Virus record (IMG/VR): IMGVR_UViG_2693429719_000003
Direction: 5' to 3' (one strand)
Origin: a virus
Taxonomy: Duplodnaviria > Heunggongvirae > Uroviricota > Caudoviricetes
DNA length: 27,117 nucleotides
The notes beneath the pieces were generated by a model. That model had not been told where the DNA came from and did not search any database. It worked only from the letters and a program-made list of their open reading frames with translations. Position 1 is the stretch's first letter. The number at the start of each line of letters is the position of its first letter. The translations under genes and the position numbers were made by a program. This document shows positions 406 to 14,516 of this stretch, one piece after another.

Positions 406-612
406 CTAAAGTTGGGAGCTTAAAAAATGCTTCATAATTCAGTAAGGCATTAGCATAATGGAAATAAAAGTGCAGAGACTATCCCTATGGATGATTAATA
501 CTGTCTTTTTATTGCTCCCCATAAATAATCACCAGACCAATACGATCAAATTGATATTTGAAATGTGTTCACTTGACTTTTGATACGTTATTTTATAACG
601 GTTAACATATTT

Positions 613-643
613 ATAAAAACAACGGGCGTGTTATACGCCCGTT
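613..643 (-). terminator. rho-independent terminator downstream of the icd 3' fragment
   Basis: Perfect 9-bp stem AACGGGCGT (621-629) / ACGCCCGTT (635-643) with a 5-nt loop; on the minus strand it is followed by GTTTTT (615-620) and lies about 25 nt past the icd stop codon. Confidence 0.6.
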
Positions 644-666
644 ATAATATTTAACACATGTGGTAA

Positions 667-831
667 TTACATATTTTTGATGATCGCGTCACCAAACTCG
701 CTGCATTTCAGCAGGTTAGCGCCTTCCATCAGACGTTCGAAGTCATAGGTTACGGTCTTGGCGTTGATTGCGCCTTCCATACCTTTAACAATCAGGTCTG
801 CGGCTTCAGTCCAGCCCATATGGCGTAACAG
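667..831 (-). pseudogene. icd: icd 3'-terminal fragment (about 54 codons, isocitrate dehydrogenase C-terminus); attachment-site duplication marking the prophage/host junction
   Basis: Minus-strand translation [53 protein letters not shown], stop at 667-669. This matches the Icd C-terminus; homology stops abruptly upstream (ILL instead of MML) and no icd body is present. Phage 21 and e14 integrate in icd and duplicate this segment. Confidence 0.85.
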
Positions 832-2809: not shown

Positions 2810-4045
2810 ATGAATAGCACGTTAAAAGAACTTGAGAGAAATTGCGCGCCAATAGATTTTATTGACCCATTGGCTCGATTGGTCTTAGATGATTTAGCTA
2901 TGTGGGCAAATGATAATATATACTCAAAACAATCTGGGTGTTTAACTTATGAATTGCCTCTTGATGGAAACATCAATGCAGCGTGTATAAGTTATCATGA
3001 CTCACGCTATCGAACCCATATTAAAATAAACCTGGGAATGGTTCAGGAAATCTACATCCAGTCATTTACCTATCCAGGTTACATTAAATATCTAGAAAGT
3101 GGAAATTGGCATTTCAACGCTCTTGATGAACCCTTTAGTGATGCTGAATTTTTATTCGAAGGTGGCATCCCTCCAAGAGTTAACGCGTCTGACACGGTCA
3201 CTCATATGGTAGAGCTATACAAAAGCATTCCTAACAACAGCAATACCATGTGGACTGATGAAGAATTAATTTGCCGTTTTGCCATGTTCGAATTAATGAT
3301 TGCGTGGATATTTTTTCATGAACTTGCGCATCACGTACAAGGGCACTACAAGATCAAAGGTGAAATAAAAGAATCGGCTACTTATTACGAATTAGATTAC
3401 TCAAGCAACATTAATAATTCCAATCCTGAGGTAACTCCCAGCGTCATCCAAAAGAACATTGACCAGCATGCCCGAGAGATACTTGCAGACCTCGAAGGTA
3501 TGTATTTAACACTCAGAATGATGGTGAGGAATGACACATTAACACCACCTAACACGTTTTTGCTTTTATATGTCCAAACCTCAATGTTTAATGTATTCTA
3601 TAAATTATCTGAGGGAAAGTATGCGGAGTTAGATAGCGTTAAAGTTTCTCACCCCCACCCTGTAATTAGAAACAAATTCGTACACGCCCTGTATGTTTCT
3701 GTGATGAAATGGGAATTGGATAATGATATATACCAAGATTATCGTCACTCTGTTAGCCGAGGTCTTGAATATTATACTGTAAAGTCATCATTGTTAGCTG
3801 GAATGATATGGGCAATGAGACAACCTGATTACAGTCCAGATGTAATGCCCCAATTTCTTAAATTTAGTGATGAGACCGAGCATGCCGCAGATTATAACTA
3901 TCTCAGGGAATTGACCTTAAGCGCTGAAAGGCAATCATCTATCATATCACTCATGCATATCATCGATGATGACTCAGATAATATTTTTAAATTAACAAAA
4001 TTAGACAAGCTATTCACTCATTTTTTAAATGTTAATGAAGAATAA
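2810..4045 (+). CDS. hypothetical 411-aa protein with an HExxH zinc-metallopeptidase motif (FFHELAHHVQGH); cargo gene B
   Basis: Long AT-rich ORF with a G-rich RBS (GGGTGGGGG) directly upstream of the ATG. HELAH at residues 170-174 with further His at 175 and 179 and acidic residues 40-60 aa downstream, resembling ImmA/IrrE (M78)-type or gluzincin motifs. The rest of the protein is unrecognised. Confidence 0.85.
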   Translation: MNSTLKELERNCAPIDFIDPLARLVLDDLAMWANDNIYSKQSGCLTYELPLDGNINAACISYHDSRYRTHIKINLGMVQEIYIQSFTYPGYIKYLESGNWHFNALDEPFSDAEFLFEGGIPPRVNASDTVTHMVELYKSIPNNSNTMWTDEELICRFAMFELMIAWIFFHELAHHVQGHYKIKGEIKESATYYELDYSSNINNSNPEVTPSVIQKNIDQHAREILADLEGMYLTLRMMVRNDTLTPPNTFLLLYVQTSMFNVFYKLSEGKYAELDSVKVSHPHPVIRNKFVHALYVSVMKWELDNDIYQDYRHSVSRGLEYYTVKSSLLAGMIWAMRQPDYSPDVMPQFLKFSDETEHAADYNYLRELTLSAERQSSIISLMHIIDDDSDNIFKLTKLDKLFTHFLNVNEE

Positions 4046-4272
4046 GATACGATGATTAGTGTTCAATTTCACCAGGGATCTGAACACCTGTCATTTGTAC
4101 AGGGCACTGTTACAGTCCTGACAACCCTAGAGTTTAATCAACTCATAGATCTCTAACTCATCACCGACTTAATGTTTATATAGCGGAATGAGCTTTCCAT
4201 GTCAGATATAACAATGTCCGCTTCTGGCACATAGCAGCCCTAGAGACAGTGGCGTAAAGTCATGGAGGACCG

Positions 4273-4298
4273 ATGGGAGGAGGCACAAATCCTCCCAT
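4273..4298. other. perfect 9-bp stem-loop in the B-C intergenic region
   Basis: ATGGGAGGA (4273-4281) / TCCTCCCAT (4290-4298) with an 8-nt loop; it is followed by an A-run rather than a T-run, so it is not a canonical plus-strand terminator. Confidence 0.3.
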
Positions 4299-4417
4299 AC
4301 AAAAAATACGTAAAATCGATAACAGATTGAAATAATTCAATATTCTCACTATCAGAAGCTGACCGGCCAGCCGCAGCACTTTCTTGCAGACGACGAGCCT
4401 GCGGTTTCAACTCCACC

Positions 4418-4451
4418 AGCCCACCAATCATTATTGGGCTTTTTCGTTTTT
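4418..4451 (+). terminator. possible rho-independent terminator between ORF B and ORF C
   Basis: 6-bp stem AGCCCA / TGGGCT with an 11-nt loop, followed by TTTTCGTTTTT (4441-4451). The stem is marginal. Confidence 0.3.
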
Positions 4452-4581
4452 CTTCACCTGCAAGCAAACCGTTGTATCATGGCGGAATGAAGATGAGCTA
4501 GGAATAATCTTATAAATCAGCTCAATATTCATATAAAAACATTTCGAACTTTGGTGTACAAAACTACATAGGGATAACTTT

Positions 4582-5784
4582 ATGTCTCTTCGTTTCAGAC
4601 AAACCTTTACTCTATTTCCTGGCGTTCGACTCAACATTGGCAAGCGTGGAATAAGTGCAAGCATTGGCGTGCCTGGCGCAACTGTCAATGTTGGTAAAAA
4701 AGGGGTTAGAGCAACTGTCGGATTACCGGGCACAGGCTTATCTTATACTACACCTACCTTGCCCTATGATGATGGATACTCAGTTACCAATCCATTAAAT
4801 CCAGCCCCTACAGAACCTCATTTGGAGTCTGGGTCATCTCCAGAAAACACACCATCGAACGCTAAAATATATATGCCTGTAGCTGGCATGAATGAAATAT
4901 CCAGCGCTTCGGTAGAAGTCCTTACAAGTACCTCCCTTTTACCTTTACGAGATTTGATTGCTAAAGCACGAGAACAAAGAGCAGAGATAAAAGCAGATCT
5001 TCAAGAGGCTCTTGCCGAAGAATCAAAACAAAAAAGCGAGCTGGCTCGACGCAAATCAAGTCTATTCCGTTGGTTTTACAAACGACGCATCGCAGAACTT
5101 GAGACACTACTCCCCCTAACCCAAGCTGAGATATCTCGCCTAGTTTCATGGGAAGACAGCACAAAAATAGCCATAACATTCGAGAGCAGTGATGCTTCAC
5201 AGCGCGCATATGCAGCGATGGTCCATGCATTTGATATGTTAAAATCGAGTGTCAAAAAATGGGATATTACTGCAGATAAAGCTACAGACCAGTTTGCTGA
5301 AAGAACATTAGCAACCCGGTCTGTTAATCGTCACCCAGTTACCTTTGATTTTAGTTCAACGGATCTCATTCAATTTACAGGGCGTGCGATGAGGTTTGAA
5401 AATGTAAATGGAGACGATATTTTGCTTTATCCTGGAGTTGCAGTCATACCACGAGCTGATGGAGCATTCGCTCTGATTGATTTACGCGAATTACAAATTA
5501 GTTCAGAATATCTAAGATTCCATGAGGAAGAAGGTGTTCCCAGTGACTCACGCATAGATGGTTATACATGGGCGAAAACGAATAAGAATGGCTCACCAGA
5601 CCGTCGTTTTAAAGACAACTACCAAATCCCTATTTGCATTTATGGAAATATTACTTTCCATTCTCAAACAGGGGTAACTGAAGAATATATGGTATCAAAT
5701 GCAGATGCCGCGCACGCCTTTGCTGAGGCAGTAAAACGCTATCAGATTTCACTCACAGAAACAGAAGCGTTGGTACAAGCCTGA
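4582..5784 (+). CDS. hypothetical 400-aa protein: DUF4236-like N-terminus, central coiled coil, uncharacterised C-terminal domain; cargo gene C
   Basis: N-terminus RFRQTFTLFPGVRLNIGKRGISASIGVPGATVNVGKKGVRATVGLPGTGLSY matches the DUF4236 motif as I recall it. Residues about 120-175 are Lys/Glu/Ala-rich and heptad-like (coiled coil). The C-terminal 220 aa or so are unknown. Confidence 0.85.
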   Translation: MSLRFRQTFTLFPGVRLNIGKRGISASIGVPGATVNVGKKGVRATVGLPGTGLSYTTPTLPYDDGYSVTNPLNPAPTEPHLESGSSPENTPSNAKIYMPVAGMNEISSASVEVLTSTSLLPLRDLIAKAREQRAEIKADLQEALAEESKQKSELARRKSSLFRWFYKRRIAELETLLPLTQAEISRLVSWEDSTKIAITFESSDASQRAYAAMVHAFDMLKSSVKKWDITADKATDQFAERTLATRSVNRHPVTFDFSSTDLIQFTGRAMRFENVNGDDILLYPGVAVIPRADGAFALIDLRELQISSEYLRFHEEEGVPSDSRIDGYTWAKTNKNGSPDRRFKDNYQIPICIYGNITFHSQTGVTEEYMVSNADAAHAFAEAVKRYQISLTETEALVQA

Positions 5785-5826
5785 TTTATCGCCGATATGG
5801 GGACGAATCGTAGCCCCCCCTCGAAC

Positions 5827-5866
5827 AAAAAAAACCTTAAGAACCAGACTATTATGGCTGGTTCTT
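5827..5866 (-). terminator. strong rho-independent terminator on the minus strand (candidate end of the late tail-fibre transcript)
   Basis: Perfect 9-bp stem AAGAACCAG (5839-5847) / CTGGTTCTT (5858-5866) with a 10-nt loop, followed on the minus strand by a T8 run (A-run 5827-5834 on plus). Confidence 0.6.
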
Positions 5867-5883
5867 ATACGGAGGATTTGTTA

Positions 5884-5912
5884 TTGTACAACTCTTCTAT
5901 CTGGTATATTTA
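5884..5912 (+). promoter_or_regulatory. candidate sigma70 promoter for cargo ORF D
   Basis: TTGTAC (5884-5889), 17-nt spacer, TATTTA (5907-5912), about 80 nt upstream of the ATG at 5993. Confidence 0.4.
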
Positions 5913-5992
5913 CGGATAGAACTGTTCAGGCTACTCAATCCTTTTTAAGTACAAATGAACAGATAGAAATAGTTATATTGCAAGGAGCTATC

Positions 5993-6781
5993 ATGCACAC
6001 TGAGTATATATGGCGATACCTTGACATAGAGAAATTCTCTATGTTACTCGAACAAAATGCTTTATTTTTTTGCTCAGCAAAAAATTTTGAAGATCCGTTC
6101 GAAGGTGAATTTGCTTGGGGACATACTGGCTATAAAAAATTCATTGAGACACAGGAAAAACTATGCGCTACTCATGGTGCCGGCATGGACTTAGATCCTT
6201 TCATGGCATTCAATTTAAAGACACTTAAGGAAATAAGCGAGAGGACATATATAAGTTGCTGGCATTGTAACGAACATGAATCTGAAGCTATGTGGAAGCT
6301 GTATTGTAAAAATCCCGCTAAAGGCGTTGTCATAAAATCAAAGAAAAAAAACCTCCAAAGCCAACTTGAAAATAATAATTTAAACAAACTACAATTAAAA
6401 CACGTAAAATACGTAAAAAATTTCTGGATAAAACAATACAATCCAGAATCAGATGTATTCTTTAACAAGAGACCATCTTTCGAATACGAAAAAGAGTTTA
6501 GAGCTATTTTTCAAGAGAATACCTTTAACACTCCACCTGTAAAGGGAAAACTAGTCCCTGTATCTCTTAACAATCTGTTGGAAGAAATAAGGATTTCACC
6601 TTTCGCAGATAAGGATTTCAAAAATGAAGTTTTACAAATTTCAAAAAAATATGGACTAGATCTAAAAGTCAAAAACTCTGAAATTGAAATGCATCCCATC
6701 ATGCATGTTGAGGAAGAAATAATTGCAGAAGGCCCCAATTGGTATCAGTCAAAAATCAGATTGGCAATACGTGATGCTTAA
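5993..6781 (+). CDS. hypothetical 262-aa protein, DUF2971-like N-terminal motif; cargo gene D
   Basis: ATG at 5993 with a consensus AAGGAG Shine-Dalgarno at 5983-5988 (the ORF track's TTG at 5978 is an upstream in-frame extension). N-terminal YIWRYLDIEKFSMLLEQNALFFCSAKNFEDPFEG resembles the DUF2971 signature. Very AT-rich. Confidence 0.8.
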   Translation: MHTEYIWRYLDIEKFSMLLEQNALFFCSAKNFEDPFEGEFAWGHTGYKKFIETQEKLCATHGAGMDLDPFMAFNLKTLKEISERTYISCWHCNEHESEAMWKLYCKNPAKGVVIKSKKKNLQSQLENNNLNKLQLKHVKYVKNFWIKQYNPESDVFFNKRPSFEYEKEFRAIFQENTFNTPPVKGKLVPVSLNNLLEEIRISPFADKDFKNEVLQISKKYGLDLKVKNSEIEMHPIMHVEEEIIAEGPNWYQSKIRLAIRDA

Positions 6782-6884
6782 TCTTATATTGAAGTTTTTT
6801 ATGTCTCCTGCTGAAACTAGCTAAAATTTACCAAGCCGCAGCACGTTATTGCATACAACATGTATGCGGCGTATCTCAAAACGA

Positions 6885-7469
6885 TTACTCCATAACAGGG
6901 ACAGCAGGCCACTCAATATCCGGTGCTACTGATGTATCAACACGGTTCAGCAACACCCGATACTTCTTCCATGCTGCCAGCAACGACGCCTCTTCTTCCG
7001 TTGCGATCTCCAGATCCACAGCATCCTGAAGTGGCGCAATATGCTCATTCGCTGCCTGCATCAGGCTGTTTTTTGTTTCTTCCGCCTCCCGGATCCGGAA
7101 TAGTTTTTCTGCTTCTGCATCTTTCACCCAGGCTGTGCCGTTCCACTTCTGAAACTCCCCTTCCGGGGATAACCAGGTGACATTTTCCGGTAATGAGCCG
7201 AGTTCAGAAATAAATAACGCGTCGCCGGAAGCCACGTCATAAACCGTTTTACCCCGATGATCTTCAACGAGATGCCACGATGCCTCATCACTGTTGAAAA
7301 CAGCCACGAAGCCAGCCGGAATATCTGGCGGTGCAATATAGGTACTGTTTGCTGGCAGACCTGTATGAGGCGGAATATATGCGTCACCTTCACCAATAAA
7401 TTCATTAGTTCCGGCCAGCAGATTATAAATTTTTATGGTCCGTGGTTGTTCACTCATTCTGAATGCCAT
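6885..7469 (-). CDS. tfa: tail fibre assembly protein Tfa
   Basis: 194 aa, matching lambda Tfa as I recall it; its start codon overlaps the stf stop by 1 nt. Confidence 0.95.
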
Positions 7470-10384
7470 TATGCAAGCCTCACAATGTAGTTAAATGCGA
7501 TGTTTTTGACGGTGTTTTCCGCGTTACCAGCAGCGTTAACGGTGATGGTGTGTCCATGTGAGCCAATCGCAACAGAGTGCGTATGAGCACCAATACCGAC
7601 AGTATGTGCGTGAGCACCTGCAGATGCAGCTGTGCCGCTGACACTATGAGTGTGCGCTCCTGCAGCACTTGTATTCACACTGGCCGCAGACACTACCTTA
7701 TGTACTGACCCATTTTGTGACCACTGGCTGACTGCTGATGCGCCTGTGACACTATGAGTATGGTTTCCGGCACTTGCGGCTGTACCGCTCACACTGTGCG
7801 TGTGCGCCCCGGTGTTATTCGTGGATTTAGTGCCGTAATCAAACGACGATGTGGTTTTCGTCCCCAAATCCGTACTGGATGCGCTGGCGCTGTGGGTGTG
7901 CGATTTAATGCCGTCCTGTTCCTGAGACAATACGGCCCGACCACTGGCAGGTTTGCCCTTAATCGTCCAGCCACGCATATCAGGGATCACGCCTGACGGA
8001 TAAGCGGCTGCAAGTTTCGGGTATGCAGATTTGTCAAAAGTCTGCCCCTGCATCAGGGCATAGCCAGACGGAACGGTATCTGATGGCCACGGGATTGGTG
8101 CGCCAGGCGGATAAAACTGCTCTGATGGCGTATAGAGTGAATAAACCGTACCGTCCGTTAACCCTTCCGGCTTATTAGCAGAATATGCTGGTGACGTATG
8201 AATCGTCACGCTGGCATTACTGGTATAATCCCATTGAATATTTACACCAGTCGCATAATTTCCGATTGCAACGTAAATATCGTAAGTATCACCAGATGTA
8301 TTGACCCAGGCAAAATTTGTAAACCCTGTCGATGTGCGCTGCCATAAAGCACCAGTAATCCCCTTCGGATTACCATTACCTGCACGCAAAACAAGTTCAG
8401 ATATACCTGCCTGTTGAGGTGACCCCACGTTAAATCCCGCGCCACCAATCAACGTAATTGAAACAACAGAACTCGCCTGTGGCATGGTTACCGTTGCTAA
8501 TTTGAACCAACCAGCACCACCGCTGAATGACATTGTTGTTGAGTTAAGCGTACCAATATCTTTCGGCGTCAGTGTTATATCCGATGAAAGCGCCTTACCA
8601 TTCACCTTACGGGCAGAAGGTACCCGACCATTCGCATTATCATTAGCTGCTTTCACTGCTTTCGGTGTCGCGGCAAGCGTTTCAGATGCGCTGTTGGTTG
8701 CACTACTGAGCTGGACAATTCCTTTTTGTGCTGTCGTAGCGTCCTGAGCAGTATATTTCCCGTTAGCAAGGTCATAGGCTGCCTTTACCGACTTTGGCGT
8801 TGCCGCCAGCATTTCAGATGTGCTGTTGGTCGCGTTGCTAAGCTGAACTATCCCTTTCTGTGCTGTCGTTGCATCCTGTGCGGTGTATTTCCCGTTAGCC
8901 AGCTCATACGCGGCCTTAACGGCTTTTGGCGTTGCCGCCAGTGACTCGGAAGTGCTGTTAGTCGCACTGCTGAGCTGTACTATCCCCTTTTTCGTCGTGC
9001 TCGCATCCTCAAGCGCCACGGCGGATGCAATATCCTCTGCCCGTTTAGCTGCTGTCTCGGCGCGCGTTGCCGCGGATTCCGCCGTACTTTTGCTCTGAGC
9101 TGCCGCCGTCGCACTGCCAGCTGCCTCTGTCGCCTTCGTGGATGCCGTCGTGGCGCTGCTCTTCGCTGCTGACGCTTGTCTGGTCGCCTCATCTTTTGAA
9201 GCAGACGCAGATGATGCCGATGACGCCGCCGAACTGGCTGACGATGCGGCAGCCGTTTTTGAGGATTCTGCGCTGGTTTCCGACGCTTTCGCGTTCGTTT
9301 CGGATGTCTTCGCTGCGGAAGCAGAACTCGCTGCTGCGCTGGCCTGTTCAGTGGCTTCGCCAGCCTTCGTTGTGGCTGTTGAAGCAGACGATGCGGCACT
9401 TTCTGCCGACTTTCCGGCAGCGGTGGCACTGGCTGAGGCCTGCCCGGCACTTGTTGACGCGGCACTGGCAGATGATGCAGCCGCTGTTTTTGAGCCTGCC
9501 GCAGCTGAGGCACTCTGTGCTGCTGCCGTTTCAGAGGACTTGGCGTTTGTCTCAGACGTCTTTGCCGCCTTCGCGGAATTTCCTGCCGCCGTTGCCGAGG
9601 AAGCTGCACTACTGGCGCTTGATGATGCGTTCGTTTCTGATGATTTTGCCGCCTCTTTTGAAGCCGACGCATCCCTGGCTGAGGTGGCAGCTTCTGACGC
9701 TTTCGTGGTCGCGGTGGATGCAGAAGTGGCGGCTGATTGTTCTGACGCTGCCGCATTCGTTTCTGACGTTTTCGCCGCACCGGCACTGGTAGCCGCCGCG
9801 CTTTTTGAGGACTCTGCAGCGGCAGCACTTTTTGAGGCTTCAGTGGCCTTTGTTGATGCCGTTCCTGCGCTGGAAGACGCTGACTGAGCCGACGACGCGG
9901 CCTGTCCGGCTGACGTGCTGGCTGCACGTGCTGAATCTGCAGCATCAGTCGCACGGGTTGCCGCCTCACTGGCAGATGTGCTGGCATCACTGGCTGACTT
10001 CTTTGCGGCTGCCGTGTTCTGTGCCACCACGGACGCGTTACGCGCCACCTCTTCCACCATCAGTTCAAAACGACGCAGTGCCTCCGGACGGGCATCATCC
10101 TCCGTCATGGCACCGAGAAAATCATTCAGCGTACCGGGTTGAGAATCTTCATACACGGTGATGGTCCCGGCATGTGACGGCGGGAATCCCTTCACCAACA
10201 GAATAACGCTGTACTGACCGTACTCAACGTCCATGCTGTAACGCCCGGCTTCATCCGGATTTTCTGAGGCCAGCGTGTTCACCACCACAGTGGTACTGTT
10301 ACGTTTTGCTTTCAGCTGGATTGTGCAGTTCTGTACCGGTTTTCCTGTGCCGTCTTTCAGTACACCTGAAATCTTTACTGCCAT
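7469..10384 (-). CDS. stf: side tail fibre protein Stf (expanded: long Ala/Ser/Thr-rich region, triplicated 44-aa fibre repeat, His-rich GxHxH C-terminal tip)
   Basis: N- and C-termini match lambda Stf. The true start is the ATG at 10382-10384 ([12 protein letters not shown]...), two codons inside the track ORF. 971 aa versus 774 aa for lambda Stf as I recall it. Confidence 0.93.
8588..8983. repeat. three tandem 132-bp (44-aa) repeats inside stf
   Basis: Protein repeats [41 protein letters not shown] occur three times (residues about 468-599); the DNA is near-identical between copies. Confidence 0.85.
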
Positions 10385-10394
10385 ATTCACCCCA

Positions 10395-11114: not shown

Positions 11115-14516
<3,402 letters not shown>

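Follow-up and report, generated by a model that had tools for sequence, protein, structure and literature searches.

A gene at positions 4582-5784 of a 27,117-nucleotide stretch of Caudoviricetes virus DNA (IMG/VR record IMGVR_UViG_2693429719_000003; the whole stretch is the window below) encodes a 400-amino-acid (aa) protein in which a DUF4236 domain is fused to a large conserved core. To judge by its sequence, the gene is a compact self-contained cassette with its own conserved promoter-like site. We propose, with a probability of roughly 40%, that its product is a membrane-proximal stand-alone defence or exclusion factor. The prophage cargo hotspot in which it lies, DUF4236 and phrog_17982 were already known; neither the architecture nor the core fold has a characterised relative.

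Architecture of the protein

RefSeq labels the open reading frame (ORF) in E. coli SC418 as "DUF4236 domain-containing protein", and an uncharacterised PHROG, phrog_17982, is matched end to end (residues 1-400 against profile positions 1-390 of 390, E 3.4e-194). Rhodobacterales contain full-length homologues with 65-69% identity. Together with the 2,907 family clusters described below, these homologues mark the ORF as a genuine gene that did not arise by chance. The coding sequence and its parts are as follows.

4582..5784, + strand: coding sequence, ATG start, 400 aa plus stop; RefSeq annotation identical, homologues full-length
4588..4749, + strand: DUF4236 domain (Pfam PF14020), aa 3-56
4750..4881, + strand: disordered linker, Pro/Ser/Thr-rich and variable, aa 57-100, from conservation and model confidence
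4882..5781, + strand: conserved core module, aa ~101-400, not in Pfam, from the phmmer family and a predicted local distance difference test (pLDDT) of 94-99
4930..5160, + strand: antiparallel helical hairpin, aa 117-193, from the AlphaFold model
5191..5781, + strand: alpha/beta domain, aa 204-400, with a helix, about 11 strands and a C-terminal helix; possibly PH-like

We searched 1.84 billion cluster representatives (clusters at 50% identity) with the core (aa 105-400) using phmmer. This returned 2,907 representatives at E<=1e-3, 391 of them at E<=1e-30, and the matches align across essentially all 296 residues, helices included. The DUF4236 N-terminus was detected in 111 of the best 149 core relatives, and most of the others among these 149 begin in or just before the core and look N-terminally truncated. 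An earlier note on this DNA, made from the letters alone, had seen three loose parts behind one another. This division was not borne out. There are two modules, as aa ~100-400 including the helices form one conserved core that is almost always fused to DUF4236.

AlphaFold2 with 148 diverse representatives yielded a pLDDT of 88.5 and a predicted template modelling score of 0.76, with 94-99 pLDDT in the core. This model was used in place of an earlier, poor run on 41 close homologues (pLDDT 59.5). The low-complexity linker described in the note was recovered: aa ~57-100 are the sole poorly conserved stretch among 41 aligned full-length homologues and the sole low-confidence stretch of the good model (pLDDT <50 at 63-74 and 79-86). 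The coiled coil of about 55 aa was half right. Its helices are real (117-159 and 163-193, both predicted at pLDDT >90), but they form an antiparallel hairpin of ~77 aa that is not free-standing.

The alpha/beta domain carries the motifs WD-T, DRxxERT, NANGxD and TWxKxNKDGSPDRRFxxNYQIP, the last being the family signature. Near-invariant core residues (W227, D228, R241, A244, R250, N274, G277, P284, F313, E315, P320, D322, W330, N334, G337, D340, R342, F343, N346, P350, Y354, G364, E367, S372 and F380) are mostly polar or aromatic and are situated in the beta-domain. The window protein shows every family feature, namely DUF4236, the variable linker, a core of ~290 aa, W227/D228/R241/R250 and NKDGSPDRRF..NYQIP.

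The C-terminal region had been described as a region of unknown fold, and structure prediction left it without a significant match to a PDB structure. Sequence searches with aa 204-400 gave no meaningful match in Pfam, NCBIfam, PADLOC or PDB, where the profile matches were coiled-coil noise. Foldseek comparison of the model to the PDB returned nothing at E<1e-3, and a BFVD structure search returned only other DUF4236 N-termini. A Pfam scan of 72 core-family members detected DUF4236 and C-terminal add-ons only, with the core unmatched. As modelled, the core fold has no significant structural relative and is possibly PH-like. Its resemblance to PH-like/GRAM domains (Sin1 PH, 3voq; MTMR6 PH-GRAM, 2yf0) is below significance (Foldseek E 0.07-0.1). 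Unlike PH domains, it has no Pfam PH or bPH match and is larger, with an extra helix and three extra strands, and it is welded to the helical hairpin.

We also considered membrane-fusion or periplasmic adaptor proteins (HlyD, MacA, EmrA) and rejected them (Foldseek E 0.02-0.06, TM-score 0.12-0.14, probability <=0.18). The absence of an HlyD Pfam match and of an N-terminal hydrophobic segment in the window protein also speaks against an HlyD-type identity. One relative (P0128) has an HlyD_D23 tail, probably from a fused gene call.

DUF4236 and long relatives point to the membrane

The DUF4236 assignment of the first ~55 residues was confirmed by a hidden Markov model (HMM) scan (residues 3-56 against model positions 1-55 of 55; 76.1 bits, E 3.1e-21; Pfam gathering cutoff 27 bits). 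The domain consists of five nine-residue repeats, each made of a 5-residue strand, in which aliphatic and polar residues alternate strictly, and then a GxxG turn; the AlphaFold model has six short strands in this region. One face is all-aliphatic, making an amphipathic basic beta-sheet. The window domain has a net charge of +8 and no acidic residues, and the mean net charge of 105 representatives is +7.5. Glycine is 74-99% conserved at positions 14, 23, 29, 32, 38, 41, 47, 50 and 52, and the turns are alternately basic (GKRG, GKKG) and Pro-containing (GVPG, GLPG). An RTX beta-roll (nonapeptide GGxGxDxUx with Ca-binding Asp) agrees with the period of nine, but was rejected because the DUF4236 motif differs: it reads GxxxxxGxx and lacks both a conserved Asp and any acidic residue. 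To read the hNhG tetrads as amyloid or RHIM-like is speculation.

A profile of nine diverse DUF4236 domains matched >7,600 proteins, the best 120 of which are 62-107 aa long. Among the 108 best matches of at least 80 aa, 100 consist of DUF4236, a short polar linker and a C-terminal hydrophobic helix. The typical DUF4236 carrier is thus, by sequence prediction, a tail-anchored membrane protein of ~100 aa. By the positive-inside rule, the positive charge of DUF4236 suggests that it should face the cytoplasm.

Phage examples with a transmembrane tail come from Klebsiella phages RCIP0034 (106 aa) and 05F01 (85 aa) and Acinetobacter phage phi5013-M2 (107 aa). These uncharacterised proteins have the N-terminal domain of the window protein (45-56% identity over aa 1-57), with its basic nine-residue repeat, and are likewise often opposite-strand or lysogeny-module cargo. 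They end in a transmembrane helix or TM2 domain after the linker, whereas the window protein has a 300-aa soluble core and no transmembrane segment. In Roseburia phage Shimadzu, the gene for a protein with DUF4236 and a TM2 domain lies between repressor and integrase, a classic position for exclusion genes. The DUF4236 protein of Pasteurella phage Pmp3 has a TM2-like segment.

Long relatives of the window protein, with at least 100 residues past the core, show the same connection. A single transmembrane helix is predicted ~40 residues downstream of the core in 48 of 66, with K/R on its N-terminal side and conserved LDW or AHEYT motifs preceding it. The C-terminal extensions of 72 relatives contain an SH3 domain (SH3_3) in 34 cases and PG_binding_1 in three; other long forms have helical extensions, one HIRAN domain, zinc ribbons or a MarR-like match. 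We infer from these counts that a substantial part of the family is anchored in the inner membrane and attached to the cell wall. In these long forms, DUF4236 and the core are predicted to face the cytoplasm. The strongest clue to function is this link of DUF4236 and of the long relatives to the membrane, which was absent from the earlier note.

The gene is a mobile cassette

Regulatory and boundary features around the gene are listed below.

4436..5802, + strand: mobile unit (promoter, 5' untranslated region and ORF), the blastn block common to other genera
4419..4451, + strand: hairpin GCCCA-N11-TGGGC followed by a T-run, read in the sequence; a terminator-like insulator that bounds the cassette upstream
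4453..4480, + strand: predicted sigma-70-like promoter TTCACC-16 nt-TATCAT, from a promoter scan (9/12 matches)
4570..4574, + strand: Shine-Dalgarno-like AGGGA, 7 nt 5' of the ATG, read in the sequence and invariant in a 4-locus alignment

Exactly window positions 4436-5802 are 90% identical to loci from Klebsiella (L004, L014) and Pseudenterobacter (L013) in blastn. This block reaches from 146 bp 5' of the ATG to 18 bp 3' of the stop, and such sharply bounded homology agrees with the separate origin that had been suspected. In remoter loci, the DNA match is restricted to the ORF and 5-77 bp upstream. The promoter-like element lies inside the conserved 146-bp leader, and its -10 hexamer TATCAT is invariant. 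An equivalent GC hairpin and T-run are found at the same position in the three Klebsiella and Pseudenterobacter loci; the hairpin at 4419..4451 was not picked up by the simple terminator scan. The gene was also said to be less AT-rich than its neighbours, which is true although the difference is modest: its GC content is 43.1%, compared to 37.1% and 34.2% in the two neighbouring genes and ~57% in the phage structural genes. The promoter-like site, the upstream hairpin and T-run, the defined cassette limits and the deviation in GC content (43% vs 57% in the phage body) are features expected of a moron. We interpret the unit as a probable moron cassette, with its own promoter and one ORF, that is cargo of prophages, conjugative plasmids and genomic islands. 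It is probably expressed from the lysogen.

Positions 4397-4432 looked like the 3' end of a tRNA or tmRNA. This was rejected, as ARAGORN and Rfam were empty there; in an alignment with the Klebsiella ssrA-adjacent locus, homology begins only at 4436. Downstream of the ORF, the simple terminator scan and direct reading gave no convincing + strand terminator. A perfect 10-bp stem (TAAGAACCAG / CTGGTTCTTA) occurs at 5838-5867, just beyond the conserved cassette, with A8 before it on the + strand. Read from the - strand, the hairpin runs into T8, so it is likely a minus-strand intrinsic terminator, which the simple scan missed.

The gene occupies a prophage cargo hotspot

The window comprises the tail end of an E. 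coli prophage of the lambdoid type that is inserted at icd. Genes for the tail and its fibres occupy the - strand from 6885 to the right end of the window. On the left side, comparison with E. coli SC418 identified ycgX and a duplicated icd fragment that marks the attachment site. A low-GC accessory region on the + strand lies between them and holds genes for an HExxH protein (2810-4045), the DUF4236-core protein and a DUF2971 protein (5978-6781). The DUF4236-core gene is thus placed between tfa/stf and the icd' attachment site, on the strand opposite to the tail genes. In other prophages of this kind the segment usually contains pinE together with variable cargo.

To the left of the gene, ~200 bp at 4216-4409 match a segment of ~225 other E. 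coli genomes (81-92% identity). In ECONIH1, the one locus examined, such a segment abuts the 3' end of pinE. The pin gene and the invertible tail-fibre segment are absent from the window, where the DUF4236 and DUF2971 cassettes are found instead. As these ~200 bp normally flank pinE beside the invertible tail-fibre segment, we regard the site as a cargo hotspot.

Cargo at the tail-fibre/attachment end of lambdoid prophages includes lom/bor and rexAB of lambda, and e14 carries lit and mcrA at the icd site. The gene studied here resembles these morons in being a single gene with its own promoter-like site, an upstream terminator-like hairpin and deviant GC content. It is also, like them, on the strand opposite to the late genes in a variable hotspot, with other candidate defence genes adjacent. 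It differs from lom/bor, rexAB, lit and mcrA in having no sequence or fold relation to them.

Distribution and genomic contexts

The distribution is patchy across many phyla. The gene is carried by 123 of 5,426 complete E. coli genomes (2.3%), with 95-100% identity. With one genome per species, one strict peptide pattern detected 464 carriers among 185,579, in Proteobacteria, Acidobacteriota, Verrucomicrobiota, Bacteroidota, Chloroflexota, Gemmatimonadota, Nitrospirota, Planctomycetota and Myxococcota. The contexts include the following.

Klebsiella prophage: gene at the prophage end, between ssrA and the tail spike
Edwardsiella prophage: gene between Q and the holins
Serratia chromosome: lone gene, a few kb from an RdrB-like gene
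Rhodobacterales: lone gene amid housekeeping genes
Plasmids (36 records): among them a Serratia conjugative plasmid with the gene beside an AAA-ATPase/UvrD-helicase pair
Microcystis phages: full-length homologue after terL, on the same strand

In the Pseudenterobacter timonensis locus (L013), an 83-bp match (12616-12698, 82% to window 4649-4731) lies 1.4 kb past the main copy and represents a second DUF4236 gene or a fragment of one.

Defence and mobile-element genes recur near the gene

We surveyed 78 genomic loci and found no conserved partner gene. The 137 proteins of the nearest ORFs match 144 different Pfam families. Mobile-element genes recur among the neighbours (tyrosine integrases 11, rve transposases 5, resolvases 4), as do defence genes. 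A 1,660-aa superfamily 1 (SF1) helicase-restriction endonuclease, a weaker match to Hhe/PDC-S37, is directly upstream in five loci, and a strong Hhe/PDC-S37 match is directly downstream in a sixth (L050, 11785-17352). Lamassu LmuB is near the gene in four loci, and other immediate neighbours match ThsB, PbeA, mREase_IV, PDC-M50B and PDC-M37B. ORFs 7.5-10 kb off match mad3 (two ORFs), retron PRTase, Shedu SduA, AbiEii, Cas3 and RdrB.

In the five loci of the Azospirillum type (L039, L040, L041, L057 and L058; ~4970-9990), the SF1 helicase has a C-terminal MTES_1575/DUF559 nuclease. It is on the same strand, and its end lies no more than 28 bp from the DUF4236-core start or overlaps it by at most 12 bp. 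In this clade the two genes may form an operon.

The defence content near the gene seems far above that expected for random genes, although this expectation comes from general knowledge and the comparison is only suggestive. The earlier note had implied a defence role and asked for a survey of neighbourhoods, and the survey makes such a role suggestive only. Neighbourhoods are rich in mobile-element genes and in recurrent defence genes, but there is no conserved neighbour, the protein has no PADLOC match, and the defence neighbours are single-HMM matches counted without a matched control.

Proposed function and alternatives

We propose that the protein acts on the cytoplasmic face of the inner membrane and defends the cell that carries it against incoming phage or foreign DNA, by exclusion or abortive infection. 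DUF4236, a very basic amphipathic beta-meander on a flexible tether, would dock on an anionic surface at the membrane; this could be the head groups of lipids, a membrane protein or nucleic acid on its way in. The helical hairpin would be a rigid stalk, probably for self-association, and the PH-like alpha/beta domain with its invariant polar and aromatic block could be the specific binding or sensing part. By analogy with the long relatives, the short form would also be found at the cytoplasmic face of the inner membrane. The long relatives would do the same job with the transmembrane helix as membrane anchor and a periplasmic SH3b or PG-binding domain as the link to the cell wall. The most specific version, a new single-gene guard of the inner membrane against incoming phage or plasmid DNA in which the beta-meander captures and the PH-like domain senses or executes, is tentative and we would not be surprised to see it fail.

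The opposite-strand hotspot position, the promoter-like site, the mobile carriers, the defence neighbours and the membrane link speak for a defence or exclusion factor. Analogy is offered by Zorya ZorAB, a cell-wall-anchored inner-membrane defence sentinel, because the long relatives similarly join a periplasmic peptidoglycan-binding domain, a transmembrane helix and long cytoplasmic helices. The differences are that there is no homology and no MotAB-like channel, that a single gene stands without an effector partner, and that the E. coli protein has neither the transmembrane helix nor the wall-binding domain.

Several observations weigh against this proposal. The window protein matches no PADLOC v2.0 family even at E<=1, and it has no NCBIfam match. 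A literature search on DUF4236, PF14020 and IPR025330 retrieved no functional study (the PF14020 term matched Plasmodium gene names), and the one paper retrieved that mentions DUF4236 gives nothing on function. The E. coli protein is a short form with no predicted transmembrane segment, so its membrane location is by analogy only. The defence-neighbour counts come from ~4 ORFs per locus, crude ORF calls and single-HMM matches, and the ORFs 7.5-10 kb off, meant as a "far" control, are themselves defence-rich. Many homologues sit alone among housekeeping genes (RecJ, DksA, Lpt genes). The 65-69% identity between E. coli and Rhodobacterales is very high for a phage sensor and fits binding of a conserved cellular component better. 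Finally, the Microcystis homologue next to terL and the DUF4236 mini-proteins of lytic phages indicate that the domain can also serve the phage.

The alternative that survives best is an accessory protein of the cell envelope or cell organisation with no role in phage defence, a membrane- and wall-tethered scaffold. Mobile elements could carry it as a fitness or lysogenic-conversion factor whose core binds a conserved host machine (e.g. for division, elongation or secretion). The long forms with a transmembrane helix and SH3b or PG_binding_1 fit this well, the very high conservation across phyla suits a conserved host target, and many loci are embedded among housekeeping genes in a family abundant in Alphaproteobacteria, Acidobacteriota and Verrucomicrobiota. 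The sparse and patchy spread (2.3% of E. coli; 464/185,579 species genomes by the one pattern) is harder to reconcile with it, as are carriage on prophages and plasmids without an operon partner and the recurrence of defence and mobile-element genes beside the gene. We consider this explanation unlikely, yet a serious competitor.

It is less likely still that the gene serves the phage cycle (host takeover, control of lysis or DNA entry, virion or tail assembly) and not the lysogen. DUF4236 proteins are present in lytic and jumbo phages and inside tail modules, in phiCD146 between tail chaperone and tape measure and also in Pasteurella Pmp3. Morons are often inserted there, so this position is no evidence of a structural role. 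The terL-adjacent Microcystis homologue, on the same strand as terL, and one weak match to a PHROG annotated as "tail fiber" (E 0.013) point in the same direction. Against this, in the window and in the Klebsiella and Edwardsiella prophages the gene has its own promoter-like site and runs opposite to the late genes. Plasmids carry it too, and it can stand alone in a chromosome without a phage nearby.

A toxic effector or addiction element, in which oligomerised DUF4236 sheets damage the membrane, the core restrains them and the mobile element is stabilised without phage sensing, is improbable: the amphipathic basic beta-sheet with its all-aliphatic face, the link of DUF4236 to membrane anchors and the single self-contained gene on mobile DNA would suit it, but the strands of just 5-6 residues are too short to span a bilayer, no antitoxin-like partner is conserved and the gene is stably kept in 123 E. 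coli genomes at 95-100% identity.

If the product is protective, it would represent a defence or exclusion family missing from PADLOC v2.0, with ~2,900 clusters at 50% identity in many phyla. It would also provide the first function for DUF4236, which is found in >7,600 proteins, most of them tail-anchored, ~100 aa long and encoded by phages and bacteria. Even if it is not defensive, the family comprises a ~300-aa module with a confident model and no significant structural relative, fused in relatives to wall-binding domains, and points to a function at the membrane that is unstudied and that mobile elements disseminate. The cassette is only 1.37 kb and has its own promoter-like site, which makes the proposal testable.

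Neighbouring genes and other features of the window

The DUF2971 protein downstream (5978-6781, + strand; Pfam E 7.5e-7) matches the PADLOC candidate PDC-S31 (E 1.3e-20) and phrog_34615. Its gene travels with the DUF4236 cassette in ~120 E. coli genomes and is absent beside the Klebsiella copies; this co-occurrence is limited to E. coli.

Upstream, the + strand ORF at 2810-4045 encodes 411 aa with an HExxH motif (FFHELAHHV) and has no Pfam match. It shows weak local similarity to the phage-exclusion protease Lit, with matches far below cutoff in both PADLOC (E 6.5e-4) and NCBIfam (PRK09672, E 0.004). It may be an independent cargo gene for a Lit-like metalloprotease, at the same site at which lit is found in e14. 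It accompanies the DUF4236-core gene in one of the 5,426 E. coli genomes.

Further upstream, a 169-aa ORF (1875-2384, + strand) weakly matches PADLOC PD-T4-5 (E 2e-4) and phrog_27260 (E 3.4e-8), and RefSeq places a different ORF of 112 aa in this stretch. Just outside the prophage end, the window lacks ~820 bp of E. coli SC418 with ymgK and iraM (window 600-700 against L001 7405-8222), and two alignments to SC418 overlap at window 616-662. A sub-threshold Rfam STnc150 match is located at 505-653.

In the tail region, a partial Rfam IS009 match (6928-7000, - strand; E 1.4e-13, with 65.7 bits against a gathering score of 117) falls within the tail-fibre assembly gene and is cut by the search boundary. 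The side tail-fibre protein (7469-10390, - strand; 973 aa) contains an Ala/Ser/Thr-rich low-complexity region at ~aa 130-480, followed by three repeats of ~37 aa and a His-rich (HTHS) C-terminal region.

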